From positions 192,593 to 256,592 of the forward strand of contig WJKK01000001.1 in the NCBI GenBank assembly GCA_014729135.1: 64,000 nucleotides of DNA, read 5' to 3'. A model generated the notes under the pieces. It worked only from the letters and a program-made list of their open reading frames with translations. It was not told the DNA's origin and searched no databases. Numbering within the stretch: the stretch's first letter is position 1; each line of letters begins with the position of its first letter. A program made the position numbers and the translations under genes. This DNA comes from a candidate division WWE3 bacterium. Its GTDB lineage: Bacteria > Patescibacteriota > WWE3 > UBA101185 > UBA10185. This document shows, in pieces, positions 3,868 through 44,028 of the stretch.

Positions 3868-4086
3868 TTATTGCCCGTTTTTAACGGAGTTTAGATCCTC
3901 CACAAGCTCTTCCACAGTTTCATCGGATAATCCATGTGTTTTTGCCCCCTGCTCCAGGGAGTCAAATCCTGCAGCCATGCAGCCTACGCAATGCAATCCG
4001 TATTTCATAAAAATTTCCGCCGTTTCCGGATGCTCCTCAAGGATTTTAGCTATGTTTGTGTTTTTAGTTATTTCCATATTTTTCAA
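3868..4086 (-). CDS. DUF1858-type redox disulfide domain protein
   Basis: 72 aa with a CVGC motif, the family often found with Fe-S assembly genes. Adjacent to the suf operon. Confidence 0.55.
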   Translation of the reverse strand: MKNMEITKNTNIAKILEEHPETAEIFMKYGLHCVGCMAAGFDSLEQGAKTHGLSDETVEELVEDLNSVKNGQ

Positions 4087-4095
4087 ATCAGGGGT

Positions 4096-4461
4096 TTAAA
4101 TTTTTTCCAAAGCCTTCTTCAAGGCTGTTAGAACAAGTGTAGCACAGCGTAATCTAGTCATACTCACAGTAATTCCCAGCAATTCCAGCAAATTCTCCTG
4201 CTTCAAATTCAAAGCATCCTCAACAGTGCGTCCTTCAATAAACTCCAACAACTTTTCAGAAGATATTACGCTAACGGCACAAGCAACTCCTTTAAATTTA
4301 GCCTCCTTAATAATGCCCTTTTCTACCTTTAATTGCAGCGTTACTTCATCACCGCAAAAGGGATTTTCGCCTTGTTGGATCACCGTGGGATTTTTAATTG
4401 TGCCTTTGTGCTTCGGGTTTTTATAAGTTTCCAGAAGTTCTTCTTTATAAATGCTATCCAT
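4096..4461 (-). CDS. sufU: Fe-S cluster assembly scaffold SufU/IscU-like (NifU family)
   Basis: Conserved NPFCGDE, GVACAVS and C-terminal Cys. Located downstream of sufS. Confidence 0.8.
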   Translation of the reverse strand: MDSIYKEELLETYKNPKHKGTIKNPTVIQQGENPFCGDEVTLQLKVEKGIIKEAKFKGVACAVSVISSEKLLEFIEGRTVEDALNLKQENLLELLGITVSMTRLRCATLVLTALKKALEKI

Positions 4462-4509
4462 CTTTTCTTTCCGGGAATTTGTTTTGATGTTAGCTTTGCC
4501 TAAAGCACC

Positions 4510-5745
4510 TCAACGTAAAAGTTTAAGGCCTTCTCTTAAGCTCTCAATAAAATAATCAATTTCTTTTTTAGTGTTGTAAATTTGGAAACTTACTCTAGCA
4601 GAGGCGTTTAAACACAGCGCCTTATGCAATGGAGCTGTGCAGTGTTGACCTGCTCTAATGGCGATTCCCTTGGCATCCAAAACTCCTGCAATGTCATGCG
4701 CATGAACACCTTCTATTACAAAACTTACCAAACCGGCTCTTTTTTCTGCATCTAAAGGTCCTAGAATTCTCACGTCCTCTAAAACCCTTAACTCTTTAAT
4801 TGCATGTGCCGCTAAATCTTGAGTGTGTTTTTTCACTTCCTTCATTCCGATTTTTTCCAAGTATTTTACTGCTTCCGCCAATCCCACTGCTCCTGCTACA
4901 TTAGGAGTTCCTGCTTCAAATTTATGAGGAGTTGCTGCCCATGTACTCTTTTCAATAGAGACTTTGTTAATCATTCCGCCACCATAGCTAAAGGGAGTCA
5001 GTTTTTCTGCCAGTTCCTCCCGAATCCATAGACCTCCTATACCCATAGGTCCTAGCATTTTATGTCCGGAGAAAGTCAAGAAATCTATTCCAAGTTTTTT
5101 AACGTTTACCGGTATGTGTGGAACAGACTGAGCTCCGTCGACAACGATTTTGATATCCTTGTTGTACTTATGCACTTCCCGGGAAATTCCCGTAACGGGA
5201 AATACCGTACCTAAAACGTTAGAAACATGCCCCAAAGCAACTATTTTTGTTTTTTTGCTAAGCAAGTTTTTTAACTGTCTCATGGGGAAATCGGGCGATC
5301 CTTCTCTTTGTGACTCTTTCATTGAAATCACCTTTAAAACAGCTCCTTTTTCTTCTGCAATCCTTTGCCAAGGGATAAAATTGCTGTGATGCTCCACTAC
5401 CGTTGTAATAATCTCATCGCCCTTTTTTATATCCCTCTGCAGCATTAAGGCTACAGCATTTAAGGAATCCGTTGTCCCTTTAGTAAAAACCAACTCTTCC
5501 GGCTTACCTCCAATAAACTCAGCTACAGTTTTTCGAGCATCCTCATACAAATGTGTGGCCTCATCGCTTAAAGTATGAATCCCTCTATGCACATTTGCAT
5601 TATGCTTTTCATAATAGTTCAGCATAGCTTCAATAACCTGCTTAGGCTTTTGGGAGGTTGCCGAATTGTCCAAATACACAAGCGGTTTCCCGTTTATTTT
5701 TCTTTCCAAAATGGGAAAGTCTTTTCTGATTTTTTCTGTGCTCAT
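4510..5745 (-). CDS. sufS: Cysteine desulfurase SufS (class V aminotransferase)
   Basis: 411 aa with a PLP-lysine region (FSGHKMLGPMGIGGLW) and the active-site loop RAGQHCT. Confidence 0.9.
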   Translation of the reverse strand: MSTEKIRKDFPILERKINGKPLVYLDNSATSQKPKQVIEAMLNYYEKHNANVHRGIHTLSDEATHLYEDARKTVAEFIGGKPEELVFTKGTTDSLNAVALMLQRDIKKGDEIITTVVEHHSNFIPWQRIAEEKGAVLKVISMKESQREGSPDFPMRQLKNLLSKKTKIVALGHVSNVLGTVFPVTGISREVHKYNKDIKIVVDGAQSVPHIPVNVKKLGIDFLTFSGHKMLGPMGIGGLWIREELAEKLTPFSYGGGMINKVSIEKSTWAATPHKFEAGTPNVAGAVGLAEAVKYLEKIGMKEVKKHTQDLAAHAIKELRVLEDVRILGPLDAEKRAGLVSFVIEGVHAHDIAGVLDAKGIAIRAGQHCTAPLHKALCLNASARVSFQIYNTKKEIDYFIESLREGLKLLR

Positions 5746-5771: not shown

Positions 5772-6383
5772 CTACCTTTTAATCTTCTCTATTATAGCCC
5801 TCTTTAAATCTTGATCTTGCCTATCTTTCAAAATCGTTTCCACAGCTTCTGCTAAAAAGCCGTCTTGTAGCATAACACTTGCCTCTGCTTTTTCAAATCC
5901 CCGCGACCTCAGATACATTAGCTGCCTTTCATTAAAGGAAGTAAGACTAGCTTTATGGTCAAGTTTTACATTTTCATTTTCCACCTCAAGATTTGGTTTC
6001 ACTTCCCAAGATATCCCTTCTCCTGCCGCCAGTCCCTTGATATTTACTTCACCTTCTGCATTCTTGGCTTTAACTTTTGCATGAACATTTCCGGAGAATT
6101 TAGCTTTAGCGCCCTTTTCCATGACAGCTCTAATTTGCACATTTGACTTAGTATTAGGCGCTCCATGGATGGTTTCAACGCTCAAATCCAGTGCTTTTTT
6201 TACATATCCCGCATAAATCACAGAAGCCCTAACGCCTTCCTCCTCCAGATTTAATTCCAGTTTCCATTTTTCTGTATCTGAAACCGACTCCAAAAAAGAA
6301 GGAATCACAAAAACAGTATCTTCCTTTACAACAAGGCTTTTACTGCAGTCTTTTTCATTTTCAAAAATGCTAACAACTTTCAC
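5772..6383 (-). CDS. sufD: SufD-like Fe-S assembly protein (short form)
   Basis: C-terminal ERQLMYLRSRGFEKAEASVMLQDGFL matches the SufB/SufD C-terminal signature. Only 203 aa, where a typical SufD is about 400. Confidence 0.6.
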   Translation of the reverse strand: MKVVSIFENEKDCSKSLVVKEDTVFVIPSFLESVSDTEKWKLELNLEEEGVRASVIYAGYVKKALDLSVETIHGAPNTKSNVQIRAVMEKGAKAKFSGNVHAKVKAKNAEGEVNIKGLAAGEGISWEVKPNLEVENENVKLDHKASLTSFNERQLMYLRSRGFEKAEASVMLQDGFLAEAVETILKDRQDQDLKRAIIEKIKR

Positions 6384-7699
6384 AACAAATCCCCTTGCAA
6401 AAGTTGATTAAACTCCAAAGCATACTCCAAAGGAAGCTGCTCCAAAACCGGCTCAATAAAGCCCTGCACTATAAGATCCTTAGCCTCCAAAAAACTCAAG
6501 CCCCGCGAACGCAAATACTGCAACTTTTCCTCCTCCAGTTTACTTGCAGACGCCTCATGCTCCACTTGAGCAGATGCCTCCTTTATAACCAGTTTAGGAT
6601 AACTGTTGCTTTTAGCCGTCTTTGTCAAAAGCAAACTGTCGCACTCCACAAAAGCTCTGGAATTTTTTGCACCCTCTTTCACGAGAACCTCTCCCCGATA
6701 GTTGCTTACTCCTTTAGAGCCGGCCAAAGATTTAGAAACCACCTTAGAAGTAGTCATTGGAGCCTCATGAACCATACGAGCGCCAGCACTAATCACCTGT
6801 CCGGAACCTGTATAAGCCACCGAAAGCATCTCCCCATGAGCCCCCGAACCGCGCAAATAACATGCCGGATATTTCATGGTAACCTTAGAACCCAAGTTCG
6901 CATCTACCCAAGACATTTTTCCGCGCGCCTCCACAGACGATTTTTTAGTCACCAGGTTATAAACGTTTTTGGACCAATTCTGAATCGTTGTGTATTTCAC
7001 CTGAGCATCTTCCGCCACAAAAACCTCCACCACACCGGCATGCAACATGTTTTTCAAATACGAAGGAGCCGTACATCCCTCCACGTAATGAACCTTGCTT
7101 CCTTTTTCAGCAATTATTAGAGTTCGTTCGAACTGTCCCAAATTTAAAGCGCCTATTTTAAAATAAGCCTGTAAGGGGAGTGTCACTGTCACGTTTTCCG
7201 GCACGTACAAAAAGGAGCCCCCTGACCAAACCGCCCCATTAAGAGCTGAAAATTTGTTATCTGTTGGCTTTACAAGTTTGCCAAAGTACTTTTGAAAAAT
7301 CTCCGGATGTTTTTGGAGGCCTTCCTCAATATTCGTAAAGATTATGCCTTGTTTTTTTAGCTTTTCCTTAAGGGATCCGTAAATGGCTTCCGAATTCATT
7401 TGTGCTTCTACTCCCGCCAAAAAGTCCTTTTCCGCTTGAGGGATTCCTAATTTGTCAAAGTCTGCCTTTACATCTGCCGGAATATCTTCCCAAGAGTTTT
7501 TCTTTGCCGTTTCAGGGGATTTATAAAAAGTGATGTCTTCCAAATTCAGGTTTTTAAGTGACGGGCCAAACGATGGTAGAGGTGTTTTTTTATAGACTTC
7601 TAGAGCTTCAAGTCTTAGATCCAACATCCAAAGGGGTTCCTGTTTGCGTTTGGAAAGTTTGCGGACAGTATTTTTATCCAGTGTTTTAAAATTCGGCAT
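6380..7699 (-). CDS. sufB: Fe-S cluster assembly protein SufB
   Basis: 439 aa with C-terminal KLQYLRSRGLSFLEAKDLIVQGF. Overlaps sufC and sufD in the operon. Confidence 0.85.
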   Translation of the reverse strand: MPNFKTLDKNTVRKLSKRKQEPLWMLDLRLEALEVYKKTPLPSFGPSLKNLNLEDITFYKSPETAKKNSWEDIPADVKADFDKLGIPQAEKDFLAGVEAQMNSEAIYGSLKEKLKKQGIIFTNIEEGLQKHPEIFQKYFGKLVKPTDNKFSALNGAVWSGGSFLYVPENVTVTLPLQAYFKIGALNLGQFERTLIIAEKGSKVHYVEGCTAPSYLKNMLHAGVVEVFVAEDAQVKYTTIQNWSKNVYNLVTKKSSVEARGKMSWVDANLGSKVTMKYPACYLRGSGAHGEMLSVAYTGSGQVISAGARMVHEAPMTTSKVVSKSLAGSKGVSNYRGEVLVKEGAKNSRAFVECDSLLLTKTAKSNSYPKLVIKEASAQVEHEASASKLEEEKLQYLRSRGLSFLEAKDLIVQGFIEPVLEQLPLEYALEFNQLLQGDLL

Positions 7700-8411
7700 A
7701 ACCCTCTTCTCTGATTTGACGGGCTAGATCTTCGCGTCCTTCTTTTACTATTTTGCCCTCCTTCATTAAAAAGATTTTTTCCGGTTCTACCTGTTCCAAC
7801 AAAGAAGGGTAATGTGTTATATAAAGGATTGTAGTGTTTTCGTTGTTTTGAAGGTTTTTTACGGCCTCGATTATGACTTTCAAAGCATCTACATCTACAC
7901 CACTATCAATCTCATCCAAAATAGCAATTTTTGGTTTTAAAAGGAGCATTTGCAGAATTTCCATTTTCTTTTTTTCTCCTCCCGAAAAACCTTCATTTAA
8001 GTAACGGTTTTTAAATTCTTTGGGGAGGTTTAAGGCAGTGAACTTTTCCTCCAAAAGGTTTGCAAATTCCGCCGGATTTAAATTTGTGTCGTGCTTTTTG
8101 TTATAGATTTGGCGAAGGTACTGCGAAATATTTAAACCGGGTATTTCCGGAGGATGTTGGTAGGAAATAAAAATCCCTTGGAGGGCAAGTTCCTCCGGCT
8201 TTTTTTCAAGGAGGCTCTCCTCCTCCCAAGAAATACTACCTTCAGAAACTTTATACGAGGGATCTCCCGATAAAGTTTTAGCTAGCGTGCTTTTACCGGA
8301 TCCGTTAGGTCCCATTAGCACATAAGTTTTTCCTTTCTCCAAAGTCAAATCCAGCCCTTTTAGGATTTGTTTATTTTCTTTTTCTGTTTTTAGATTTTGG
8401 ATTTTTAGCAT
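7686..8411 (-). CDS. sufC: Fe-S cluster assembly ATPase SufC
   Basis: Walker A GPNGSGKST, ABC signature FSGGEKKK, Walker B ILDEIDSG. First gene of sufCBDSU. Confidence 0.9.
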   Translation of the reverse strand: MLKIQNLKTEKENKQILKGLDLTLEKGKTYVLMGPNGSGKSTLAKTLSGDPSYKVSEGSISWEEESLLEKKPEELALQGIFISYQHPPEIPGLNISQYLRQIYNKKHDTNLNPAEFANLLEEKFTALNLPKEFKNRYLNEGFSGGEKKKMEILQMLLLKPKIAILDEIDSGVDVDALKVIIEAVKNLQNNENTTILYITHYPSLLEQVEPEKIFLMKEGKIVKEGREDLARQIREEGYAEF

Positions 8412-8438
8412 GTTTTTTGATCGCTTTTTCGGCAGAAT

Positions 8439-18205: not shown

Positions 18206-18604
18206 ATGTTTAGGTGGTTGAAGCATATAGATTCCCTGGAGGATGCAGAAAAAAATATTAAGCGTGGGTATATCCTTGCGTATTTGTTAGGGGCCTTCAA
18301 CGCCCTCATTCCGCTTTTTATGGATCTCTCGGAAATTATGGATCTCTCGGAAAATTCATATTTAGTTTCTGTTCCCGGTAGTTTAGTGCACTTCATCTTG
18401 GGCTGGCTACTTCATAAGAAAAGAAGTCTTATTGCTAATTATGCGCTTCTTATTCTTAGCGTTTCGAACTTAATATTGTTGTTCACAATGGATGTAGGTG
18501 GGCTGGCCATCGGTATCAGGGCTTTTATGGTTTATATCTTTTTAAATTCTCTGAGAGCGTTATACTGGTTGAGGAAAGATAATTTACCTACTCAGGGCAC
18601 TTAA
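18206..18604 (+). CDS. Hypothetical membrane protein (contains tandem MDLSEI/MDLSEN repeat)
   Basis: 132 aa with 3-4 TM segments, transcribed divergently from the XRE gene. An internal 18-bp tandem repeat lies at about 18321-18356. Confidence 0.35.
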   Translation: MFRWLKHIDSLEDAEKNIKRGYILAYLLGAFNALIPLFMDLSEIMDLSENSYLVSVPGSLVHFILGWLLHKKRSLIANYALLILSVSNLILLFTMDVGGLAIGIRAFMVYIFLNSLRALYWLRKDNLPTQGT

Positions 18605-18616
18605 TTTTGGCAATGT

Positions 18617-19246
18617 ATGCTAGCAAGAGTTTTTTCCCCTAAAACAAGGAAGATCTTAGGCATATTTTTCTTGTTGCTTGGGTTGTCATGGGGATATGTG
18701 GTTGCCCAAAATGATATTTGGGAGCAGGGCAGCTTCTTCCAGGAAGTTTTATGGAAGGTACAAAATGCGCAAAATGAGGGGTCTGCTTTAGTCGGAGCAA
18801 AAGCCTCTAAAAAGATTGAAATGTGTATGGATACGCTTACTGCCGGACAATTCAAGTTAGTTTCTGAGAACCTACCTGAAGAATTAAAAACTGTTTTCGA
18901 AGTAACTTCCCTGCTAGAAAAAGAGTGCCTTTGGGTATTTCGTGCTGCCTACAAAGATATAACTAAAGACGGTATTAATGAAATTTTTTTAAATACCGCA
19001 GGTGCTGGGTGCGCTAGTTGCCATGCGCGACGTCTCTTAATACTTGACGGTGCCAGTTATGCCACCCTGTTTGATGAAAGTGTGGACCAAGGCTCTTTCA
19101 TCTTTGACGGTGATGCAGATTTTAAAACTAAAGAAGCGGTGCGTTTATCCAACGAAAGCTACTGCTGCCCTAGTAAAGCAATCATCCGAGACTATTACTT
19201 CGACAAACGCCCCTATTTACAAGATTTACAAGTGAGAGAGTTCTAA
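18617..19246 (+). CDS. Hypothetical secreted Cys-containing protein
   Basis: 209 aa with an N-terminal signal/TM segment and several Cys. Confidence 0.35.
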   Translation: MLARVFSPKTRKILGIFFLLLGLSWGYVVAQNDIWEQGSFFQEVLWKVQNAQNEGSALVGAKASKKIEMCMDTLTAGQFKLVSENLPEELKTVFEVTSLLEKECLWVFRAAYKDITKDGINEIFLNTAGAGCASCHARRLLILDGASYATLFDESVDQGSFIFDGDADFKTKEAVRLSNESYCCPSKAIIRDYYFDKRPYLQDLQVREF

Positions 19247-20049
19247 GCGGCTCTTTTTAAACGCATTCTTATAATTCCGATAAATTCGAGCGTCCATTCA
19301 ACGATAGACTTGTCTGTACAAAAGTTGAATAGTGCAAGTGCTCCCATAGAGATTATGAAATGCAACATGTAAGGTTCTCCCGAGAAGAATTTGATTACCC
19401 CTAAAGTAACTTCGGTTAATACTATAAGCCCTACAAACCGCCTAACGAACCTGTTGTTTAGTTCTCGTTCTTTTACTTCAGGAGGGTTTGGATCCACGCT
19501 TTTGTACTCTTGTAAGACTATCGCTAGTATTTTTTTGCCAAATTCATTCGCGTAATAGGTATAGGGGGCTATCTCATTAACTATGCCGAAGATCAAAAAA
19601 CATTTAGCCAATGGTGAATATTCCGCCGTACCGTCTAATTTCCAGAGGTTCCCGTTGACTAGAAATATAAGCGTCTTCTTAATTTGTTGTTTACTACCGA
19701 AAAACTTTGTGGGCAGTTCTTTCGTGAGTTCAATTACAATGCTTTCTCCTCCACCAGTAGCTTTTTCCTTACAACTCTCTGAGAATTTTTTTCCTTTTCT
19801 ACCTGAAGTAGGGGCTCCCTCCTCTGTCAGAAATAACAATTTGACCTCGTGTAAATACTCCTTACTTGCTTCTACCAAAAGTCTAAAATCTTCTGAGTCA
19901 CCAAGCTTTGAATCTCCTACTTCCTCTATCGTTTCCAAAAAAACTTTTAGTCTGGAGGTTCCCTCAGTTGCTAACCACTTTTTATAAGCTTCCTCCGCGT
20001 AGTAGGCTTTCTTACTAAAGTTTAATTGGCTGGGATCTTGTAAGTGCAT
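19243..20049 (-). CDS. Hypothetical protein with two C-terminal TM helices
   Basis: 268 aa, immediately downstream of and co-oriented with the 991-aa gene (5-nt gap). Confidence 0.35.
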   Translation of the reverse strand: MHLQDPSQLNFSKKAYYAEEAYKKWLATEGTSRLKVFLETIEEVGDSKLGDSEDFRLLVEASKEYLHEVKLLFLTEEGAPTSGRKGKKFSESCKEKATGGGESIVIELTKELPTKFFGSKQQIKKTLIFLVNGNLWKLDGTAEYSPLAKCFLIFGIVNEIAPYTYYANEFGKKILAIVLQEYKSVDPNPPEVKERELNNRFVRRFVGLIVLTEVTLGVIKFFSGEPYMLHFIISMGALALFNFCTDKSIVEWTLEFIGIIRMRLKRAA

Positions 20050-20053
20050 GGTG

Positions 20054-23029
20054 CTAGCTTTCTCCTGGAGTTTCCGGGTAATCTATTCGCCCTTTTCCTA
20101 ATTCAGCTACATAGCAGCTAAATGCTTCTTGAATGTAACTCCAAAACCAATTCACCTTGGGTTTAGCGTTATTTCGCCTAAACCACTTGTATATCACTTG
20201 AAACGGCACAAAAGAACCTTTTTCCGACAAGTTAGCTATGTACTTTTCTGTCCCTTTCCATATGTACAGGACGTAGGACCAGAAGTCAGAGTCTTTCTCC
20301 AGAAGTTCTATAGTGAAGTCCAAGAGGCTCAGGAAATTCGGCAAAAACAACGGATTCTTCAAATCTATTAAAGGGCTAAAAAAGGTTAAAGAAGATAGTT
20401 CCCCCTCTAGGGTGCTTACGCTGTGAACACCTTCTTTAGGAGTGTGTTTCTGAGCACGCTTTTCGATTTGGTTAAACCTCCACCAAATAGCCTCGCGATC
20501 TTCGTAGGCTCGAATCAAGATTTCGTTGCTAAGCTCTCGTATAATTTCAGCACGGGTACCTTCTTTGGTTTTGTTTTCCTGAAAAAGCTTCTTTAAGTAT
20601 TCTTCTCCTTCCCATAAACCTTTTGTGGTGAGTAAGCGTAAAACTTCCAGAGAAGAACGAACAACGTGTTCCTCCATAGAGGGATCTTCAATTAAACTCT
20701 GTACTACTTCTGCCGGGCTCGAAAGGTTAGAGGTTTGTTGTAGAAGTTGCTCCACTGTATAGGTGTAAGCAGAAGGCATGAGGCGTCTGCTATCACTGTT
20801 CGGGCTCAGGTAGCAAGAATTAACGTGGGAAAGTTCAGCATCTTCAACTTTTTGGGCAATATCTAAAATAAAACGCTGATCCTCGTAGTAGGCAAAGGGA
20901 ATATAGTCAATAAGCTTTTGCCGGTAATGTTTACGCACATAGTTTCTCCCTAGGAGTTCTCCTAAGACGCGCGCAGCTTCTCCAAAATACTGGGCTACAC
21001 CCGGACTCAATGTATAATGTTTAGAGTTGCCCGATGTGCCTTCAATAGTCACAGAGAATTCGCGTACTTTGGCTTTATCTAAAGCATTTTTAGCTATTTT
21101 TTGCAGACCTTCCTTATATTTAGGGGAAATTCTGTTTTCCAGGATCTCTTTGTTATTAAGGTAGTATCGAAATACATCCGTCATGTAGCGGTTTTCGTTT
21201 CCGCCGGCATGTAGGCGTGCTTCAAAACCTTGTAGAATTTCCTTTATTTGCTCTTCCTGGTATGTGTGCGAATTCTCGTTGTTTTCACTCTTAGGTGTCC
21301 CTTGCAATAGTGGTTTTACCCGGTTTCTTGCTTTTTCAATAGTGCTTTTAGCATTTTCGTTGTAGATCTCCTCGAAAGATTCATCCAAATCCCTTAGTAG
21401 ATTTGCATACTCTGGTCTATAGGTAAGTGCTAGAAGCTCTACCTGAGCTCCAAAGTTTCGCAGGGGTTCTTTTTCCGATTTAACAGCATCAACAACTTTT
21501 GAAAAATAAGTCTTATTGTGCGCCAGTACTTCTTTAAGAAAGTTTAGAACTATGTAGGACTTGTCGTAGTAAAGCTCATTGTTAAGTGCGTAGTATTGAG
21601 TAACTACATCCTCCAGAGCTGATAGTACTTCCTCGTCAAAAACTTCTATGACATGCTCTATTATTAGTCGGTCGCTTTTTTCCCTGTCGGGGCGACCGCC
21701 GTCGAAAATGGATTCCTTGTCTAAAAACGCCTTAAAAAATTTCTCGTCGCTAGCCATTTTCTTTAAAAAGTATACGATTCCTTCTTTACTGGAAATTTCA
21801 AAGAAGCCGTAACGTGCATAAATGTCCAGTCCTTCCTTTGTACCACGTACAAGATAGTCTATAGTTAAAGGAAGGTTTGGTGCTATTGTATAGGCTAGCT
21901 GTAAAAAGGCTTGTTTAACAAGCTTATCCTCAAACTCATACGAGTCCTTAGTTACTTCAACAATACTCGGATCGTCGAAATTTTCTAGTGCATGCAAAGA
22001 ATGCCTCTGCAAAACCCCATTACCCACATCAGAAGTAGCATAGTTAATGAGAATGTTCTTAACCTTCGTAAGCTCCCCGCTCTCAAAGGCTCCAAATTCA
22101 ACTAAAGGCCCTAATAAGGAGGCGATGTTTCCTGCTTTAGTGTAGCCTTCGTCCGTATCTATATCTACGCGACCAATTTCCCCAAAGAGGAAATCCTTTG
22201 CTTTCGGTGTTACAAACTTAGCTAAATTTTGGCCTGTCCAAACGGGGAACCATACTCTTAGCTCTTGGTAAAAGTCATAAAAGAGGTGGAAAGTAGTCTC
22301 GCATTCTTCCTCCGAAAAGGTAGTGGTAGAAACATTAGTGAGCGTTTGGGAGAGGTTTTCATTGATGTTTAAAGGATTTTTTTCTAAAAATTCGACTAAA
22401 GATGTGTGTAGAGCGTGAAGGTGCTCCGTGTCCGTTAAGAATGCATAAACTCCCAGCCAACTATGTTTAAAGGCCCTTATGCCCTCCTGTTCAAAAATAG
22501 CCGTTTTCAAAAAATTCCGCACAGGGTTTTCACGTTTAAGAATATACTGGGCCGCCAGATACTCTTGAACGGTATGATGTAGGAAACATAGACGTTCCAC
22601 CCCATCTTCACGCGTGTACGTAATAAGCGAAGAGGTGGCTAAGTCTTGTGTAAGTACGCCCTTATCACGTAGTTGCTGCAAAGTGGAATTCTCTACTTTA
22701 TTTTGCTGCAAAAGCTCCAGCGCGTAAGCCAGCGTTTCCAGCTGTCCCAGCTTTGCCGAGTTAGATTCCCTTGAGCGCACAAAGTGGTTATAAAAGTCAG
22801 ATCTAGAGAAAGAAGAGGAGTGCTTCTTGCGTAAGAAGGATTTTAGAGAAGCATACGCTTCTTTTTGGCGAACAAACGCGTTGTAGTAGTCTTTAAACCA
22901 AAAAAGATCTATGATCTCATTAACTTCTTCCTCTGTTAGTTCGAAACCCAACTCTTCAGAAGACAGCAAGCCCTCCCGTATTTCGGAAAGGTCAAGTTTA
23001 GCAGTTTCTACTTCATTTGCTGATGACAT
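20054..23029 (-). CDS. Large (~991 aa) alpha-helical hypothetical protein
   Basis: The ORF track begins at a TTG (23044). The first ATG (MSSANEVET) is at 23027-23029. Contains a CFLHHTVQEYLAAQYIL segment that resembles the winged-helix region of STAND/NACHT NTPases, but no P-loop. Confidence 0.45.
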   Translation of the reverse strand: MSSANEVETAKLDLSEIREGLLSSEELGFELTEEEVNEIIDLFWFKDYYNAFVRQKEAYASLKSFLRKKHSSSFSRSDFYNHFVRSRESNSAKLGQLETLAYALELLQQNKVENSTLQQLRDKGVLTQDLATSSLITYTREDGVERLCFLHHTVQEYLAAQYILKRENPVRNFLKTAIFEQEGIRAFKHSWLGVYAFLTDTEHLHALHTSLVEFLEKNPLNINENLSQTLTNVSTTTFSEEECETTFHLFYDFYQELRVWFPVWTGQNLAKFVTPKAKDFLFGEIGRVDIDTDEGYTKAGNIASLLGPLVEFGAFESGELTKVKNILINYATSDVGNGVLQRHSLHALENFDDPSIVEVTKDSYEFEDKLVKQAFLQLAYTIAPNLPLTIDYLVRGTKEGLDIYARYGFFEISSKEGIVYFLKKMASDEKFFKAFLDKESIFDGGRPDREKSDRLIIEHVIEVFDEEVLSALEDVVTQYYALNNELYYDKSYIVLNFLKEVLAHNKTYFSKVVDAVKSEKEPLRNFGAQVELLALTYRPEYANLLRDLDESFEEIYNENAKSTIEKARNRVKPLLQGTPKSENNENSHTYQEEQIKEILQGFEARLHAGGNENRYMTDVFRYYLNNKEILENRISPKYKEGLQKIAKNALDKAKVREFSVTIEGTSGNSKHYTLSPGVAQYFGEAARVLGELLGRNYVRKHYRQKLIDYIPFAYYEDQRFILDIAQKVEDAELSHVNSCYLSPNSDSRRLMPSAYTYTVEQLLQQTSNLSSPAEVVQSLIEDPSMEEHVVRSSLEVLRLLTTKGLWEGEEYLKKLFQENKTKEGTRAEIIRELSNEILIRAYEDREAIWWRFNQIEKRAQKHTPKEGVHSVSTLEGELSSLTFFSPLIDLKNPLFLPNFLSLLDFTIELLEKDSDFWSYVLYIWKGTEKYIANLSEKGSFVPFQVIYKWFRRNNAKPKVNWFWSYIQEAFSCYVAELGKGRIDYPETPGES

Positions 23030-23035
23030 GGCCCC

Positions 23036-23063
23036 ACTATACAATAGAAGAAAGAGAAGTCAA
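23036..23063 (-). promoter_or_regulatory. Sigma70-like promoter (TTGACT-N16-TATAGT) driving the 991-aa gene, predicted leaderless
   Basis: On the minus strand the sequence is TTGACT tctctttcttctattg TATAGT ggggcc ATG. The -10 ends 6 nt before the ATG. Confidence 0.5.
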
Positions 23064-23069
23064 CGAATT

Positions 23070-23115
23070 TTAATGTGTTTGTCACAATCTTGGGAAGACT
23101 TGGACGTGCCCGAGG
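23070..23115. promoter_or_regulatory. Palindromic operator-like element, copy 1 (degenerate arms)
   Basis: TTAATGTGTTTGTCACAATCTTGGGAAGACTTGGACGTGCCCGAGG is collinear with copy 2 at 25176-25222. Sits about 10 nt upstream of the -35. Confidence 0.5.
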
Positions 23116-23225
23116 TTCTCATGCGAAACAAAAGGTGCGCTAGGGGAATCTCTAGGGGTGCGCTAGGGAATTGTGAAATAATTCCCGAGCTTCCTAGAAG
23201 AGGTCAAAAATAACTTGCGCAATTA

Positions 23226-24248
23226 CTATTCCGAGGGGATTTTGTATTTAATGTCCTTGTTCCCGTGCAGAACTATCAAACTGTAGCTAGAAGCATCCGC
23301 AGGTATCTCGTAAAATAATTTACCTTTCTCTGCAAGAGAAGGACCCAATGTTCTATAGTCCAAATAATCTTCTATTCCAATGGAATCATCATAAGTTTCA
23401 AAGGTTCTTCCAGCAGAATCTTCTAGGGTTATACGTGAGTCGGGATTAAAGTCAAATTCAGAGTTTGTGGTATTGACTAGCTTCAAATTCACAGTAACAA
23501 ACTTTGCTCCCTCTCTTGCGATATGGGGCTCTCCATAAGAAGCGGGGAGCTCTTGTGACTCTTCAAAGGATTCAACTGTTAATTCATAGGTGGCGGTCTT
23601 TATCGTTTCCCCGACATTTGCCTGTACGATTTCTAAATTATCCTTGTTAGAGCTTGTGCCCTCGTCTTCAGGAATCTCTCCGATTTTCATGCCCAAAAAA
23701 GAGCCATATTCTGAGTAATCCCGGAACACTTCAAAGGCAATGTTCTCGAACCCAGCCTTATTAGAACTACATTTTGCGATTTTCTCTCCGGTTTCTTCGT
23801 CATTAAAGTTGATAGTAAAGTGCTCAATTGAGTATCCGGATAAGTAGGATTCATAGTCTTCGCCTTCTTTGAAATTTTCTACTATTTCTTTTTGGTCTTC
23901 CGATAAATTGGATTCCTCAGCAAAGAATCCTTCATTAAAGGCGGAACAGGTAAGGTTAACTAGGAAAGGAGCAGTTGTAACAGTTTCTCCTAGGAATTCA
24001 GTATATTCGTCATCGTCTGCCACGGGTAAATCCGTAGAAATATCTGCACTTTTTGTAACTTTGTTCCTTACAACTGTTACTTTAGTGTCACCCTTTTCGT
24101 ATGAAATTTCGTCGGTGACGATTTTCTCCTTTTTGGTGCGTGTACCTCCTTCCTCATCTATCTGGGCTTTAGGTCTGAAAATGAGCCAAGCTGTTCCTAA
24201 AAGCAGTACTGAGGCAGCTATTATGGTTATTAGATCCTTCTTTTTCAT
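23226..24248 (-). CDS. Membrane-anchored extracellular protein with C-terminal DUF4352-like domain
   Basis: Start placed at MKKKDLITIIAASVLLLGTAW (TM anchor). The C-terminal beta-rich domain looks DUF4352-like. Confidence 0.4.
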   Translation of the reverse strand: MKKKDLITIIAASVLLLGTAWLIFRPKAQIDEEGGTRTKKEKIVTDEISYEKGDTKVTVVRNKVTKSADISTDLPVADDDEYTEFLGETVTTAPFLVNLTCSAFNEGFFAEESNLSEDQKEIVENFKEGEDYESYLSGYSIEHFTINFNDEETGEKIAKCSSNKAGFENIAFEVFRDYSEYGSFLGMKIGEIPEDEGTSSNKDNLEIVQANVGETIKTATYELTVESFEESQELPASYGEPHIAREGAKFVTVNLKLVNTTNSEFDFNPDSRITLEDSAGRTFETYDDSIGIEDYLDYRTLGPSLAEKGKLFYEIPADASSYSLIVLHGNKDIKYKIPSE

Positions 24249-24350
24249 GCCCGTATTATAACAGGACTTAGACGTACTATTGACAGCGAGTATTACTAGC
24301 TCCAAAAGGTCGTGCGAGAAAGCTTCTACGTGAGTTGCTTTGGCATATGA

Positions 24351-25031
24351 TTAGTTTTCTAATCTCATGAATACAGGTTCAATAGTTTCTTCTTCGCTTC
24401 GATTTTCATTATTATAGCTTAGATTATTATACAATTGAATTCCTACATGGGAGGGTCTTACTTCAATGGGGTAAAGAAGAATTTTGTCCACCGTACCTTC
24501 TCTCGTGATCTCTATGGTGTCATGCCCTTTGAATTTGGCTCTGCCCTCAATTAGGCTTCCCTCCACCTTTAAAAGCCATACATTGTTATATTTTCCGTAT
24601 AGGGACGCTGGGGCCGCTTCTAGCTTCTTCTCGACTTTTTTTGCCAAATCTTTTTGAGGGCACTTAAGCGAGTACGTGTTATTACAACTAAACATGTCAT
24701 TCCATTTTGCTAATTCTTGGTTAAAAATTTCGACGTAAGGGTAATAAAGGTTTTCTTTGTCATATTTTTCACATTGCCTGTCACCATAAGCCCCGGACCA
24801 TTTATTGCAGATAGTAAATTTTTCATCCAAATTGTCCAGATATAGACTTTTGTCCACCTCATTTTTCAGGTTTCTGGGGAGTTCCTCGTATGTATAGACT
24901 TTTGCATCCTTAAAGATATAGGCCTCACGAAATTCTTCCGTATAAGAAGTTGTAGATGGAGTCTCTTGAAAAGTACAGGCGGTTAGTAGGGAGGCAAGCA
25001 ACGTTATGTATATTAGACTCTTAATCCTCAT
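24351..25031 (-). CDS. Putative lipoprotein
   Basis: Signal peptide with lipobox MRIKSLIYITLLASLLTAC. Confidence 0.5.
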   Translation of the reverse strand: MRIKSLIYITLLASLLTACTFQETPSTTSYTEEFREAYIFKDAKVYTYEELPRNLKNEVDKSLYLDNLDEKFTICNKWSGAYGDRQCEKYDKENLYYPYVEIFNQELAKWNDMFSCNNTYSLKCPQKDLAKKVEKKLEAAPASLYGKYNNVWLLKVEGSLIEGRAKFKGHDTIEITREGTVDKILLYPIEVRPSHVGIQLYNNLSYNNENRSEEETIEPVFMRLEN

Positions 25032-25175
25032 TTACAGCCATTTTAGATTTTTTATTCAGTTTTGTCTAAATGGGGCATATTTGGTTTGAATTTCGTTCTT
25101 AGTTCTATCCCAAAATTTCTACCAGATTTCTAATAAAGTGCTGTACGGGGAGCCATTAAAGTTCGTATTCGAACT

Positions 25176-25222
25176 TTAATGCGCTTGTCAAAATCTTAAA
25201 AAGATTTTGACATGCCCGAAAG
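25176..25222. promoter_or_regulatory. Palindromic operator-like element, copy 2
   Basis: Core is GTCAAAATCTT-AAA-AAGATTTTGAC, a perfect 11-bp inverted repeat. The same flanks (AATG..CTTGTCA / ATGCCCGA) as copy 1. Contains TTGACA on the minus strand. Confidence 0.55.
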
Positions 25223-25327
25223 AATCGCAAAGCGATTCTTGAGCAAGAGGCGAAGCAACTCGCATGGGCCAGGTAAATGCGACTGAACAGGAGCATTTAG
25301 CTGCACCCGAAAACTTGCGTAGCAAGT

Positions 25328-25807
25328 TTGAGCTCCGGAGAAACTTTGAGCTCGATTCTGAGTATTAGAATTTATATGAACAACACAGAGCTTATTAATT
25401 TTATATGGGACAATATGATAGCAATATTTCTGTTTATTTTTTCACTGCTTCCTGTTCTTCCGGCAAAAATAGTTGATAAGTTTGGCTATGAAATAGCTCA
25501 GCGCTATGAAAATCCAAATCCGGCGAACTGGTCCATAATGAAGTTTATCACGAGGCAACTGTTTAATGGGGTAATTAGCGAAATAGCAATCAATTTAGGG
25601 TTGAGGGGAACAGTATCCCTAGTATTATTTGCTGTGGTTTTTACGGATCTATTAAATAACAAGACACTTTCAAACCAATCATTAACAGTTATTGCAGTAG
25701 CAGTTTTATCTCTATATCTTGAATATCTTGTTCAAAACGCAGAAGAAATTGAATTTTTCAGGTTATTCAAGTACAAAAGTAAAAAACCTAAAAAGGATCA
25801 GCAGTAG
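25328..25807 (+). CDS. Hypothetical membrane protein
   Basis: 159 aa with 4 TM segments. Confidence 0.35.
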   Translation: MSSGETLSSILSIRIYMNNTELINFIWDNMIAIFLFIFSLLPVLPAKIVDKFGYEIAQRYENPNPANWSIMKFITRQLFNGVISEIAINLGLRGTVSLVLFAVVFTDLLNNKTLSNQSLTVIAVAVLSLYLEYLVQNAEEIEFFRLFKYKSKKPKKDQQ

Positions 25808-26542: not shown

Positions 26543-27550
26543 ATGAGAACCATCTTTAACCCACTCAAATCCCTCTGGGACAAAAGTCCCCTCCATAAAA
26601 TCCTCCTCATACTCCTCTTTCCCATAACCCTCACATACATAATCATTGCTTACAAAAACTGGTCCGCCAAAACAAAAACCATTGTAATAGTACTCTTTTG
26701 GGCTCTTATAGGCGCTTTAAATACATCCTCAAATACATGCACGGTCTCCACTCCTTTAACCTCAGCGGAAAATTCCACCTCCATAAACCCCTCAACTACC
26801 GCTAAGTTAGCACAAGAAACCACTCCCAAAACCCCCTTTGAAAAAGGAACTGTAACCTCCGTTGTTGACGGCGACACAATTCACGTTTTAATTGAAGACA
26901 CCGACGTGACAGTTCGCTTGATAGGTATCGACACCCCTGAAACCAATCACCCTTCGGAGCCGGTTCAATGCTTTGGCAAAGAAGCCACACAGGCCTTAAA
27001 AGATTTAATTTTAGATACCGAAGTAGCTTTAGAAAAGGATGTTTCTTCTGTTGATAAGTACGGCCGGGCTTTGCGTTATGTTTGGTCGGGTGACGTTTTG
27101 GTAAACGAGTTCATGGTTCGCAATGGATATGCTTTTGCGTCGGCTTATCCTCCCGATGTGAAGTTTCAGGATCGTTTGGATTCTGCAGAGGAGTATGCGC
27201 GAACTAATTCTGCGGGTTTGTGGGCAGAGGCTACATGTGATGGTGATGTTTATACGGGAACTTATAGGGATCCTGATTTTGTGGAAGAGGCTGTCGACAC
27301 TGGAGGGGCTGCGCCCTCTTCCAATACTTCTGTGTCAACTACAGAGAGTGTTCCCGCTTCAAATGTTTCATCGGTTCCTTCCGCACCTGCTCCGGAACCG
27401 GCAGCTGCTCCAGCCTTTTCTTGTAGCTGCAGCAAAACTTGTAGTGAAATGGTCTCTTGTGAAGAAGCTTACTTTCAGCTAAATACTTGTGGCTGTTCCG
27501 CTAGAGACGGTGATAGCGATGGTGTTCCCTGTGAGAGCATTTGTCGGTAA
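26543..27550 (+). CDS. Secreted thermonuclease (SNase/micrococcal nuclease family) with C-terminal Excalibur Ca-binding domain
   Basis: SNase core with DGDT and RLIGIDTPE motifs. N-terminal TM anchor. C-terminal Cys-rich tail containing DGDSDGVPCE. Confidence 0.75.
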   Translation: MRTIFNPLKSLWDKSPLHKILLILLFPITLTYIIIAYKNWSAKTKTIVIVLFWALIGALNTSSNTCTVSTPLTSAENSTSINPSTTAKLAQETTPKTPFEKGTVTSVVDGDTIHVLIEDTDVTVRLIGIDTPETNHPSEPVQCFGKEATQALKDLILDTEVALEKDVSSVDKYGRALRYVWSGDVLVNEFMVRNGYAFASAYPPDVKFQDRLDSAEEYARTNSAGLWAEATCDGDVYTGTYRDPDFVEEAVDTGGAAPSSNTSVSTTESVPASNVSSVPSAPAPEPAAAPAFSCSCSKTCSEMVSCEEAYFQLNTCGCSARDGDSDGVPCESICR

Positions 27551-40637: not shown

Positions 40638-40649
40638 AGAAGTCAAGAA

Positions 40650-40735
40650 CTCAAAATCTTTCTAAAAGCTTCTTGGGGAACGTCAACAGAACCAATCCGT
40701 TTTAGACGCTCCTTACCTTTTTTCTGGCGCTCCAA
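40650..40735 (-). pseudogene. Duplicated 3'-terminal fragment of lepA (86 bp, 83/86 identical to 42221-42306)
   Basis: Encodes LERQKKGKERLKRIGSVDVPQEAFRKILSS, identical to the LepA C-terminus. The upstream reading frame is unrelated. Confidence 0.8.
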
Positions 40736-42213: not shown

Positions 42214-44028
42214 CTAACTACTCAAAATTTTTCTAAAGGCTTCTTGGGGAACGTCAACAGAACCAATCCGTTTTAGACGCTCCTTACCTTTTTTCTGGCG
42301 TTCCAACAGCTTATCCTTGCGTTCCCGATGGCCGCCGTAAATCCCTTGCAAAACCGTTTTTCTCATAGCCGGAAGATTCTCACGTGCCACAATCCTGCCT
42401 CCAATAGCTGCTTGCAAAGCCACTTTAAACTGCTGCTTGGGCAGAATTTCTTTCAACTTCAGCAAAACATCACGCCCCTTACGCTCCGCCTCCCTACGCA
42501 AAACCATATGCGACAAGGGTTCCACCACATCACCATGAACCAAAATGTCCAACTTAACCACATCTGCTTGGCGATACTCCAAAAACTCATAATCCAAGCT
42601 GGCAAAACCTGACGAAGTACTTTTCAAATCATCAAAAAAGTTTGCTATCAGCTCACTTAAAGGAAGTTCATATTCAAAAATTACCCGGTTTTCAGTAGGG
42701 TACTCCATGGAGCGTTGCACGCCTCGCCGCTTTTCGCAAAGCGTAATAATATTGCCCACATACTCCGCCGGAGAAACTATATTTATTAAAATCCAAGGCT
42801 CTTCAATACTTTCAATTCTAGAACGATCCGGCATTTCCGAAGGGCGCTTAACAAACTCCGTTTCACCTCCCGTCAAATTTACCTTATATTCAACACTTGG
42901 AGTTGTAGAAATTAGCTCCAAATTGTACTCGCGTTCTAAACGCTCTTGAACCACATCCGCATGCAAAAGCCCCAAAAATCCACATCTAAAACCAAACCCT
43001 AAAGCCCCGCTACTTTCCGGTTCATAAGTTAGGGCTGCATCAGATAAGGCCAGCTTTTCCAGTGCTTTGCGTAAATCCTTAAAATCGTCATTTTCAATAG
43101 GATAAATTGACACAAAAACAAAAGGCTTAATTTCCTTATATCCCGGCAAAGGCTGCACGTCTTCTTTTTGGTTGTAGTAAGTTAGCGTATCGCCCACGTG
43201 AATTGAGTGGATGTCCTTTAGGCCTGTAGCCACATAGCCCACTTCGCCGGTTTTAAGAGTGCCTGTCTTTTTTCTTTGAGGCGTAAAGATGCCTATTTCT
43301 TGAACTGTTGCTGCTTTTTGTGATGCTAAGAAGTAAATTTCCTCGTTTTCTTTGGTCTTTTGAAGCGTGCCTTCTGTTATTTTTACTACAGCCACAACTC
43401 CCAAGTAGTCGTCGTAAAATGTATCAAAGATTAGCGCTTTAAGAGTTTTTTCGCGTTCTTTTGGAGTTGGAGGAGGCACTTTTGTAATTAGCTCTTTTAA
43501 AAGAGTCTCTACATTTTCTCCGGTTTTAGCCGAGACTCTAAGGATTTCCTCTCTTTTAAAGCCAAACGTGTTTATAAGATCTTGTTCTACTTCGTCGGCT
43601 TGATGACCTTTAACGTCGATTTTGTTGATAACGGGAATTATGGTGAGGTCTGCTTCTAGGGCTTTGTAAACGTTGGAGACGGTTTGGGCTTCAATTCCTT
43701 GTGTGGCGTCAACAACGAGGATTGCTCCTTCGCAAGCTGCTAATGAGCGGGATACCTCGTAGGAGAAGTCGACGTGGCCGGGTGTGTCTATGAGGTTTAG
43801 TTGGTAGGTTTGGTTGTTGTCTTTCCCAAAGGAATAGTTCATGCGCACAGCTTTAAGCTTTATAGTAATTCCCTTTTCGCGCTCCAAATCCAGCTGATCC
43901 ATGGTTTGCTCTTTAAGTTTGCGTTTTTCCACGGTTCCTGTAATTTCCAGGAGTCTATCTGCTAACGTAGATTTTCCATGGTCGATGTGAGCAATTATGC
44001 AAAAGTTTCTAATATTTTTTGTGTCCAT
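42214..44028 (-). CDS. lepA: Translation elongation factor 4 (LepA)
   Basis: G-domain IIAHIDHGKSTLADRLL and DTPGHVDF, plus the LepA C-terminal domain. Start placed at MDTKNIRNF (ATG 44026-44028); the ORF track extends to 44181. Confidence 0.9.
   Translation of the reverse strand: MDTKNIRNFCIIAHIDHGKSTLADRLLEITGTVEKRKLKEQTMDQLDLEREKGITIKLKAVRMNYSFGKDNNQTYQLNLIDTPGHVDFSYEVSRSLAACEGAILVVDATQGIEAQTVSNVYKALEADLTIIPVINKIDVKGHQADEVEQDLINTFGFKREEILRVSAKTGENVETLLKELITKVPPPTPKEREKTLKALIFDTFYDDYLGVVAVVKITEGTLQKTKENEEIYFLASQKAATVQEIGIFTPQRKKTGTLKTGEVGYVATGLKDIHSIHVGDTLTYYNQKEDVQPLPGYKEIKPFVFVSIYPIENDDFKDLRKALEKLALSDAALTYEPESSGALGFGFRCGFLGLLHADVVQERLEREYNLELISTTPSVEYKVNLTGGETEFVKRPSEMPDRSRIESIEEPWILINIVSPAEYVGNIITLCEKRRGVQRSMEYPTENRVIFEYELPLSELIANFFDDLKSTSSGFASLDYEFLEYRQADVVKLDILVHGDVVEPLSHMVLRREAERKGRDVLLKLKEILPKQQFKVALQAAIGGRIVARENLPAMRKTVLQGIYGGHRERKDKLLERQKKGKERLKRIGSVDVPQEAFRKILSS

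Follow-up and report, generated by a model that had tools for sequence, protein, structure and literature searches.

The immune repertoires of the Candidate Phyla Radiation (CPR), which includes the candidate phylum WWE3, are thought to be small. Antiphage systems usually show themselves as a conserved sensor with coupled, swappable effectors in mobile islands, and PICIs (chromosomal islands that are phage-inducible), a kind of phage satellite, typically carry tyrosine integrases. Here we describe a stretch of 64,000 nucleotides (nt) from a WWE3 bacterium (assembly GCA_014729135.1, contig WJKK01000001.1, positions 192,593–256,592; hereafter the window), in which two minus-strand operons lie beside two copies of a palindromic repeat. 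One operon encodes a 991-amino-acid (aa) protein and a 268-aa partner, the other a lipoprotein and a DUF4352 protein. The closest described proteins are bacterial NACHTs, for which the Walker B signature D[GAS]hDE and an architecture of NACHT with a C-terminal REase-like domain have been reported (Kibby et al., bioRxiv 10.1101/2022.07.19.500537), together with Dsr1, which shares its sensor with Avs7 and works without a STAND NTPase (PMC13581612), and DSR2, which has a HEAT-repeat sensor (PMC10981675).

An earlier note on this DNA had taken the repeat for a candidate operator shared by the two operons, and the locus for a possible defence or host-interaction module on a mobile island. We hold it to be rather probable that the repeat is a by-product of integration and not an operator, that the operons are cargo of an integrative island, and that the 991-aa and 268-aa proteins form a defence system.

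The island and its borders

Transfer RNAs were called with ARAGORN and Rfam, and proteins were annotated with Pfam and PHROG. Judged from its ends and its genes, the segment 14064–25145 was shown to be an integrative island of the large-serine-recombinase type, inserted in the 3′ end of a tRNA-Asn(GTT) gene (Table 1). The recombinase at one end has Resolvase, Recombinase and Zn-ribbon domains, and the attachment (att) ends are kept among related elements at the same target. The core that closes the tRNA gene at 14054 (attL, 14054–14063) is repeated at 25146 (attR, 25146–25155). Recombinase homologues with ~62% identity occupy the same tRNA-Asn(GTT) in two other genomes (loci L055 and L056), where the genes beyond the tRNA are also those of the window: a DUF1189-like gene, then a very large open reading frame (ORF). 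The sequence that follows the tRNA, ATTGGACGATATWCGAAC... on the P′ side of the island, is kept in all three genomes, and in each of them a second GGGGAGCCA lies ~10 kb away, after a conserved island end. This GGGGAGCCA junction is the same in L055 and L056, the junction sequence is unique in the window, and positions 25133–25156 match the far island end of L056 at 92% over 24 nt (E = 3e-4). Because the attL and attR ends match the homologous islands in L055 and L056, the island is delimited as 14064–25145 (11.1 kb). Exact look-ups of two proteins encoded in the flanks, meant to reveal variants that lack the island, returned no record.

These borders bear directly on the repeat. Both operons are accessory cargo at the island's right end. 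Copy 1 of the repeat lies inside the island, and copy 2 lies 15–64 nt beyond the attR core, on the side that remains chromosomal on excision, so that the two copies belong to different genetic units.

The content of the island is phage-satellite-like, with a recombinase, an XRE regulator, and replication-like and small-terminase-like proteins. It resembles PICI-like satellites and elements with large serine recombinases in its length of ~11 kb and in having the recombinase at one end, by attL. It also shares with these elements regulator, replication and small-terminase-like genes, the absence of structural genes, accessory defence-like genes at the far end and a target in the 3′ end of a tRNA gene (tmRNA in locus L003). 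It differs from PICIs in its serine recombinase, has no known helper phage or induction, and has a CPR host. In the literature searched, we found no description of satellites of this kind in the CPR. The related recombinase gene of L003 overlaps the 3′ end of the tmRNA gene in the same manner, and no direct repeat bounding the L003 island was found.

Several observations concern the att sites and the recombinase gene. Joining 25126–25145, the core 25146–25155 and 14064–14081 reconstructs an attP of ~45 bp in which an imperfect dyad, TTCTAATA... / ...TATTCGAA, surrounds GGGGAGCCA; ~45 bp is the typical size of a serine-integrase attP. The last ~25 codons of the recombinase gene read through P′, then the attL core, and on into the tRNA gene, a part that the homologues do not cover. 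In the public annotation the recombinase is a 360-aa protein (P0158) without the Resolvase domain; the ORF in the window is intact at 535 aa. A split arrangement, in which copy 1 of the repeat would close a 9-kb island as its attR and copy 2 would be an intact attB, was also considered and was ruled out by L056, which fixes the end at 25133–25145. A search of the window for a third junction further to the right found none. In L055 an SNase homologue (3928–4968; 35% identity) is island cargo, and the SNase gene of the window (26543–27550) lies just outside attR; this placement would agree with leftovers of additional elements stacked on the island's right side.

Table 1 Features of the island and its right flank, in window coordinates
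Feature	Position	Strand	Evidence or remark
tRNA-Asn(GTT), integration target	13989–14063	+	last 10 nt (14054–14063), CGGGGAGCCA, form the attL core
Large serine recombinase, 535-aa ORF	14022–15629	−	Pfam Resolvase, Recombinase, Zn_ribbon_recom; PHROG 95 integrase, E = 8e-81
Maintenance block, including small ORFs	15665–18152	−	
DnaD-like/winged helix-turn-helix (wHTH) replication protein	15665–16279	−	Pfam/PHROG
Small-terminase-like helix-turn-helix (HTH) protein	17410–17907	−	Pfam/PHROG
XRE regulator	17940–18152	−	Pfam/PHROG
Two genes for membrane or secreted proteins	between the XRE and 268-aa genes	+	
268-aa orphan, putative membrane effector	19243–20049	−	hydrophobic C-terminus; 4 nt after the 991-aa stop; GGAG 12 nt upstream
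991-aa NTPase-less NACHT-derived protein	20054–23029	−	HD1, winged helix, HD2, HEAT-repeat solenoid
Promoter-like TTGACT-N16-TATAGT	23036–23063	−	ATG at 23029, six nt past the −10 box
Repeat copy 1	23064–23113		degenerate, island-internal, palindrome broken
Structured spacer, DUF4352 stop to copy 1	23116–23225		GGGAATT-N7-AATTCCC hairpin, then GA
DUF4352 protein, membrane-anchored	23226–24251	−	N-terminal anchor; Pfam DUF4352, E = 5e-12
226-aa lipoprotein	24351–25031	−	lipobox LLTAC
Promoter-like TAGACA-N17-TAAAAT	25040–25068	−	directly 5′ of the lipoprotein ATG
Island right end	25133–25155	+	P arm ATAAAGTGCTGTA and attR core CGGGGAGCCA (displaced tRNA-Asn 3′ end)
Array of five or six consecutive hairpins	25154–25340	+	starts at the CCA of the displaced tRNA end
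Repeat copy 2	25170–25219		perfect palindrome at 25186–25212; 15–64 nt beyond the attR core
Small membrane protein, DUF4429-SHOCT protein, SNase-Excalibur nuclease	right of the lipoprotein gene	+	

The palindromic repeat and its surroundings

The repeated element of the earlier note is real. The best local alignment of the two copies pairs 23064–23113 with 25170–25219 at 40 of 50 positions (80%); its score of 50 compares with a maximum of 29 among 300 shuffles, and the flanks TTAATG and GCCCGA are common to both copies. The inverted repeat of copy 2 is perfect over 12 bp, with a 3-nt spacer, and can be written TTGTCANAATCTT-N3-AAGANTTNGAC. Copy 1 is degenerate, as the note had said, with three arm substitutions of which none is compensatory. 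Folding agrees with the alignment: copy 2 forms a strong hairpin (z = −5.4 and −6.1 on the two strands), and copy 1 forms none (z = −0.3 and +0.1). The search for further copies that the note had called for was run over the 64-kb window with the whole palindrome, the half-sites and the flanks at 2–3 mismatches, and gave neither a third copy nor an excess of half-sites. The motif was not found in the homologous loci L001–L007 and L048–L056. At its gathering threshold Rfam matched three tRNAs only in the window, and at E ≤ 10 over 22900–25500 the sole return was a spurious match to a miRNA hairpin. Neither copy 1 nor copy 2 drew a terminator-like call; the palindrome is AT-rich and has no T-run. 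A human-gut metagenome contig (L008, 3454–3482) has a perfect palindrome with identical arms, TTTGTCAAAATCTT-ATA-AAGATTTTGACAAA; it is the sole metagenome match and probably an unrelated coincidence.

The two copies stand in different relations to the nearest promoters. A TTGACT-N16-TATAGT site does precede the 991-aa gene, and its arrangement fits a leaderless transcript. The homology block of copy 1 abuts the −35 box of this site (23064 vs 23063) and does not lie 10 nt upstream of it, as had been claimed. Copy 2 was said to precede the operon for the lipoprotein and the DUF4352 protein; the lipobox and the DUF4352 domain hold, and the element is 139–188 nt upstream of the lipoprotein ATG, ~100 nt from the operon's own promoter-like site. 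Relative to the predicted starts, the palindrome centres are near −63 for copy 1 (991-aa gene) and near −166 for copy 2 (lipoprotein gene), the latter because a separate promoter-like site, at 25068–25040, immediately precedes the lipoprotein ATG. Between the DUF4352 stop codon and copy 1, the spacer has a minus-strand fold with z = −3.4 and no canonical terminator called in it, and it is possibly a terminator or an insulator. Two GGTGCGCTAGGG(G)AAT direct repeats, ~23 nt apart, also occur in this spacer (23131–23170).

Dyads at comparable positions adjoining each promoter were not found, nor were sites kept in related loci or extra sites at the regulator's promoter; the XRE gene and its divergent promoter have no half-sites nearby. 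Copy 2 resembles XRE/Cro-type operators in its perfect dyad, the size of which suits a dimeric HTH protein. The sites here differ from such operators in that they overlap no promoter, lie at unequal distances, are missing from the regulator's own promoter and include one beyond the mobile unit. None of the features compared supports the idea that the two operons are co-regulated through a shared operator: the copies are in different units and at unequal distances, one dyad is broken, and neither the surroundings of the XRE gene nor the homologous loci have the motif.

Copy 2 is one hairpin within the array at 25154–25340, which folds with z of about −7 on both strands. At 25154 the array starts with ...CGGGGAGCCA, the same sequence as the final 10 nt of tRNA-Asn. 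Perfect hairpins (stem ≥8 bp) cluster at two places only in the window, this array and the tRNA-Ser/tRNA-Ile spacers at 2015–2830, and a module of hairpin, RCCCGA and triloop hairpin has five occurrences, all confined to these two regions (two of them in 25154–25340). A different module of 71 nt, unrelated to the 50-nt repeat, is shared with 80% identity between 25265–25335 (+) and 2062–2132 (−), in the tRNA-Ser trailer 23 kb off. One of its stems changes from G-C to U-A and another is fully replaced yet pairs; these compensatory changes imply selection for pairing. Because the array shares the 71-nt module with the tRNA-Ser trailer, such sharing belongs to these tRNA-trailer arrays rather than to the pair of operons. 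Hairpins that start from the CCA end trail tRNA genes in the window and in L055 (tRNA-Ser), and could be lineage-specific elements for tRNA 3′ processing or termination. In the window such arrays were also noted over 1940–2830, from the CCA ends of tRNA genes, with no Rfam match. A genome scan with ATTTAGCTGNACCCGAAA, from a neighbouring module, gave 39 matches across phyla, about the number expected by chance.

The 991-aa protein, its family and its partners

The 991-aa product is 100% identical to GF360_00995, a hypothetical protein encoded on an 864-kb WWE3 contig, and has no match in Pfam, PHROG, PADLOC or NCBIfam, the bNACHT model of PADLOC and the NACHT model of Pfam included. The motif CFLHHTVQEYLAAQYIL is present, as reported in the earlier note, and the P-loop (Walker A) and the NACHT Walker B signature are absent. 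A word-indexed search found ten relatives. Among them, P0009 (1,363 aa) carries a P-loop in its N-terminal part and matches the NACHT model of Pfam just above threshold, and both P0009 and P0021 have PGYGKT and DALDE upstream of the region that aligns with the 991-aa protein. A profile search of 1.84 billion representatives returned 563 proteins at E ≤ 1e-3 (314 at E ≤ 1e-30), counted as cluster representatives at 50% identity, and these have two architectures. The short form (~40% of the best family representatives) is ~990 aa long and begins where the 991-aa protein begins, and Walker A and Walker B are absent from all 32 full-length representatives (32/32). The long form (~1,345 aa) is extended at both ends. 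Some 180 additional residues at the N-terminus bring PGYGKT and DALDE, the latter a Walker B that fits D[GAS]hDE and occurs in 67 of 72, and some 170 at the C-terminus bring a nuclease-like D..ExK motif, seen in 63 of 72. The description as a NACHT-like winged helix without a P-loop was correct, because the long relatives carry the P-loop core and the short forms have none.

The structure check proposed in the earlier note was also run. An AlphaFold model built from the family alignment has a mean predicted local distance difference test (pLDDT) score of 80, and Foldseek matched it to HEAT/ARM solenoids only. Profile searches of the PDB found HEAT proteins (alphaRep, PBS-HEAT) and weak AAA+ matches and no others, and Pfam HEAT_2 occurs in relatives. 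The solenoid covers ~750 residues, and the protein combines the winged-helix and helical domains that follow a NACHT NTPase with a C-terminal repeat sensor. These comparisons show that the 991-aa protein descends from the NACHT-HEAT STAND family, with the P-loop core lost and HD1, the winged-helix domain (WHD) and HD2 kept, and the evidence points to an uncatalogued NTPase-less branch of that family. The protein would act in the manner of an NLR-type or Avs-type sensor, but because the defining NTPase features fail, it should not be filed as a NACHT NTPase.

With bacterial NACHT antiphage proteins it shares HD1, a winged helix of the FxHxTxQEYLAA type, HD2 and a HEAT-repeat sensor, and the long relatives add the DALDE Walker B and a C-terminal REase-like effector. 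It differs from them in having no Walker A, Walker B, sensor 1 or fused effector; the putative effector is a separate downstream gene. The likeness to Dsr1 and DSR2, functionally its nearest precedents, is a repeat-type sensor without the STAND NTPase switch, and the Dsr1 sensor is itself shared with a STAND family. Those two are single proteins with an N-terminal SIR2 domain, whereas the 991-aa protein has no SIR2, keeps HD1, WHD and HD2, and pairs with variable separate effectors.

We infer that the 268-aa gene is co-transcribed and translationally coupled with the 991-aa gene. The tight junction of the two genes noted earlier stands; of the two C-terminal membrane helices claimed for the product, a hydropathy scan finds one that is clear (201–219) and one that is borderline (~228–246). 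Among 5.8 billion proteins, a search for homologues of the 268-aa protein gave only a match to itself. Its single-sequence AlphaFold2 model has a pLDDT of 38, and PADLOC gave only a weak SIR2 match (E = 0.011).

Of the ten homologue contexts that we compared, five (L001, L003, L006, L049 and L053) have a large serine recombinase gene close by, and small-terminase-like or XRE-type genes recur; the window island carries both of these and the recombinase. At six of the seven short-form loci, the stop codon is overlapped by the gene that comes after it. Downstream partners are TIR_2 proteins (L048 and L051), members of a 206/231-aa family, with a small single-pass membrane protein after them (L003 and L053), a D..ECK-motif protein of 257 aa (L052) and a 248-aa protein (L049), and in P0013 a TIR domain is fused at the C-terminus. 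Just upstream lie PycTM in L001 and a PycTM-like protein in L006, and the neighbours in these loci include a restriction-modification pair, SIR2_2, PLDc_2 and ParE toxins. In PADLOC-DB v2 the relatives matched only PDC-S66, through the fused TIR, and mad1, through an HTH. The family is thus a conserved sensor with swappable effector genes within mobile or defence islands; the homologues in serine-recombinase islands, the exchangeable partners and the defence neighbours support the earlier view of a defence module on a mobile island. In L049 the sensor gene is split (6001–8974), with ORFs of 595 aa and 400 aa that jointly span the full length.

The 991-aa and 268-aa proteins are probably a two-gene antiphage system. 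In the mechanism that we propose, the HEAT solenoid of the 991-aa protein would bind a phage protein as a nucleotide-independent sensor, and the WHD-containing scaffold would change conformation or oligomerize, so that the partner is released or activated. Once active, the 268-aa membrane protein would cause membrane damage or abortive infection. In other members of the family, TIR, nuclease-like or small membrane proteins would take the partner's role.

Readings of the repeat and of the pair

Copy 1 is most simply read as a decayed internal copy of the island flank. It would be a relic of an earlier junction or rearrangement at an integration hot spot in tRNA-Asn, and today it would at most contribute to the spacer between the DUF4352 operon and the promoter of the 991-aa gene. 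The flank to the right of attR resembles the P′ side of the island, with TATTCGAA at a similar spacing followed by CAARATCT and TAAAAGRTTTTGA. Given the usual make-up of serine-integrase att sites, this likeness hints that 25146–25219 is a P-core-P′-like junction in a tandem stack of elements, in which case copy 1 would be the decayed relic of a like junction. It is also possible that the stretches rightward of the two copies are recombinase-less elements that have a P′-like end only and are mobilized in trans.

Several points count against the reading as integration by-product and defence cargo. No GGGGAGCCA core adjoins copy 1, and a search of L055 and L056 for internal copies of their own flanks found none. 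The likeness between the flank and P′ is weakly significant, its score being reached by 22 of 1,000 shuffles. A perfect 12-bp palindrome could still bind a protein. As to the pair, the 268-aa partner is an orphan without a recognizable domain, and the argument for its defence role with the 991-aa protein is one of guilt by association.

Two other explanations of the repeat were weighed. In one, the palindrome is an operator for a dimeric island regulator (XRE or wHTH) that co-represses or co-activates the 991-aa/268-aa and lipoprotein/DUF4352 operons, a proposal that we consider quite improbable. The dyad of copy 2 is indeed perfect over 12 bp, around a 3-nt spacer, both copies lie between genes and 5′ of minus-strand genes with just two in 64 kb, the island encodes an XRE protein, and a copy 1 centre near −63 could suit an activator. 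Yet copy 2 is outside attR and would be left behind upon excision, the promoter distances differ by ~100 nt, the three arm changes of copy 1 are uncompensated and leave no dyad fold, half-sites are absent from the XRE promoter region and elsewhere in the window, and no homologous locus has the motif. In the other, the repeat belongs to a dispersed structured intergenic family (REP-like or tRNA-trailer terminators) with hairpins selected for 3′-end formation or insulation; copy 1 would be the terminator of the DUF4352 operon, and the copies would be alike through family membership only. The destroyed and uncompensated hairpin of copy 1 makes this unlikely, as do the lack of a U-tract or a terminator-like call at either site, the lack of an Rfam family match and the presence of just two copies of this module in the window. 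It draws on the hairpin arrays that flank tRNAs from the CCA end, the five recurrences of the hairpin-RCCCGA-hairpin module and the compensatory changes in the 71-nt module, and on the position of copy 1, exactly between a gene end and the next promoter and beside a structured spacer (z = −3.4).

For the pair, the competing explanation gives the 991-aa HEAT protein a structural or scaffolding part in the life cycle of the island (for example in helper-phage interference, packaging or host takeover) and takes the downstream genes for unrelated cargo. In its favour, a HEAT solenoid is a generic scaffold for interactions, the protein lacks any catalytic or NTPase domain and any PADLOC, Pfam or NCBIfam match, and the family is found on satellite-like islands (recombinase nearby in five of ten contexts). 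We nevertheless find this very doubtful, given the whole-length homology to NACHT proteins with nuclease effector domains and the coupled downstream partners that include TIR, fused in P0013; effector swapping is a hallmark of defence systems.

Beyond the defence reading of this one pair, we put forward only tentatively, as the less probable claim, that the ~990-aa proteins are a distinct, uncatalogued two-gene immune class. Its members would combine an NLR/NACHT scaffold without a nucleotide switch with effectors interchangeable in trans, on CPR serine-recombinase islands that stack at tRNA and tmRNA 3′ ends. If the pair is functional, an NLR-type sensor with a winged-helix scaffold can signal without ATP binding or hydrolysis, which would extend the recurrence of STAND sensors in NTPase-less systems such as Dsr1 (PMC13581612). 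With 563 representatives at 50% identity the family is large, yet it is invisible to Pfam, PADLOC and NCBIfam, and the island is an att-delimited example of satellite-like defence cargo in a CPR genome. The locus also illustrates that a palindrome repeated 5′ of two neighbouring operons can arise from site-specific integration by a tRNA gene and not from regulation.

Two minor observations concern other parts of the sequence. A −10-like box 4–7 nt before the ATG, with no Shine-Dalgarno sequence, occurs at many island genes (23029, 25031 and 18206 in the window; 4138 in L048; 5261 in L006), and leaderless transcripts may be common on these islands. Further right in the window, an 87-nt direct repeat with 97% identity (40649–40735 and 42220–42306) lies at the 3′ ends of two minus-strand ORFs that are 1.6 kb apart.

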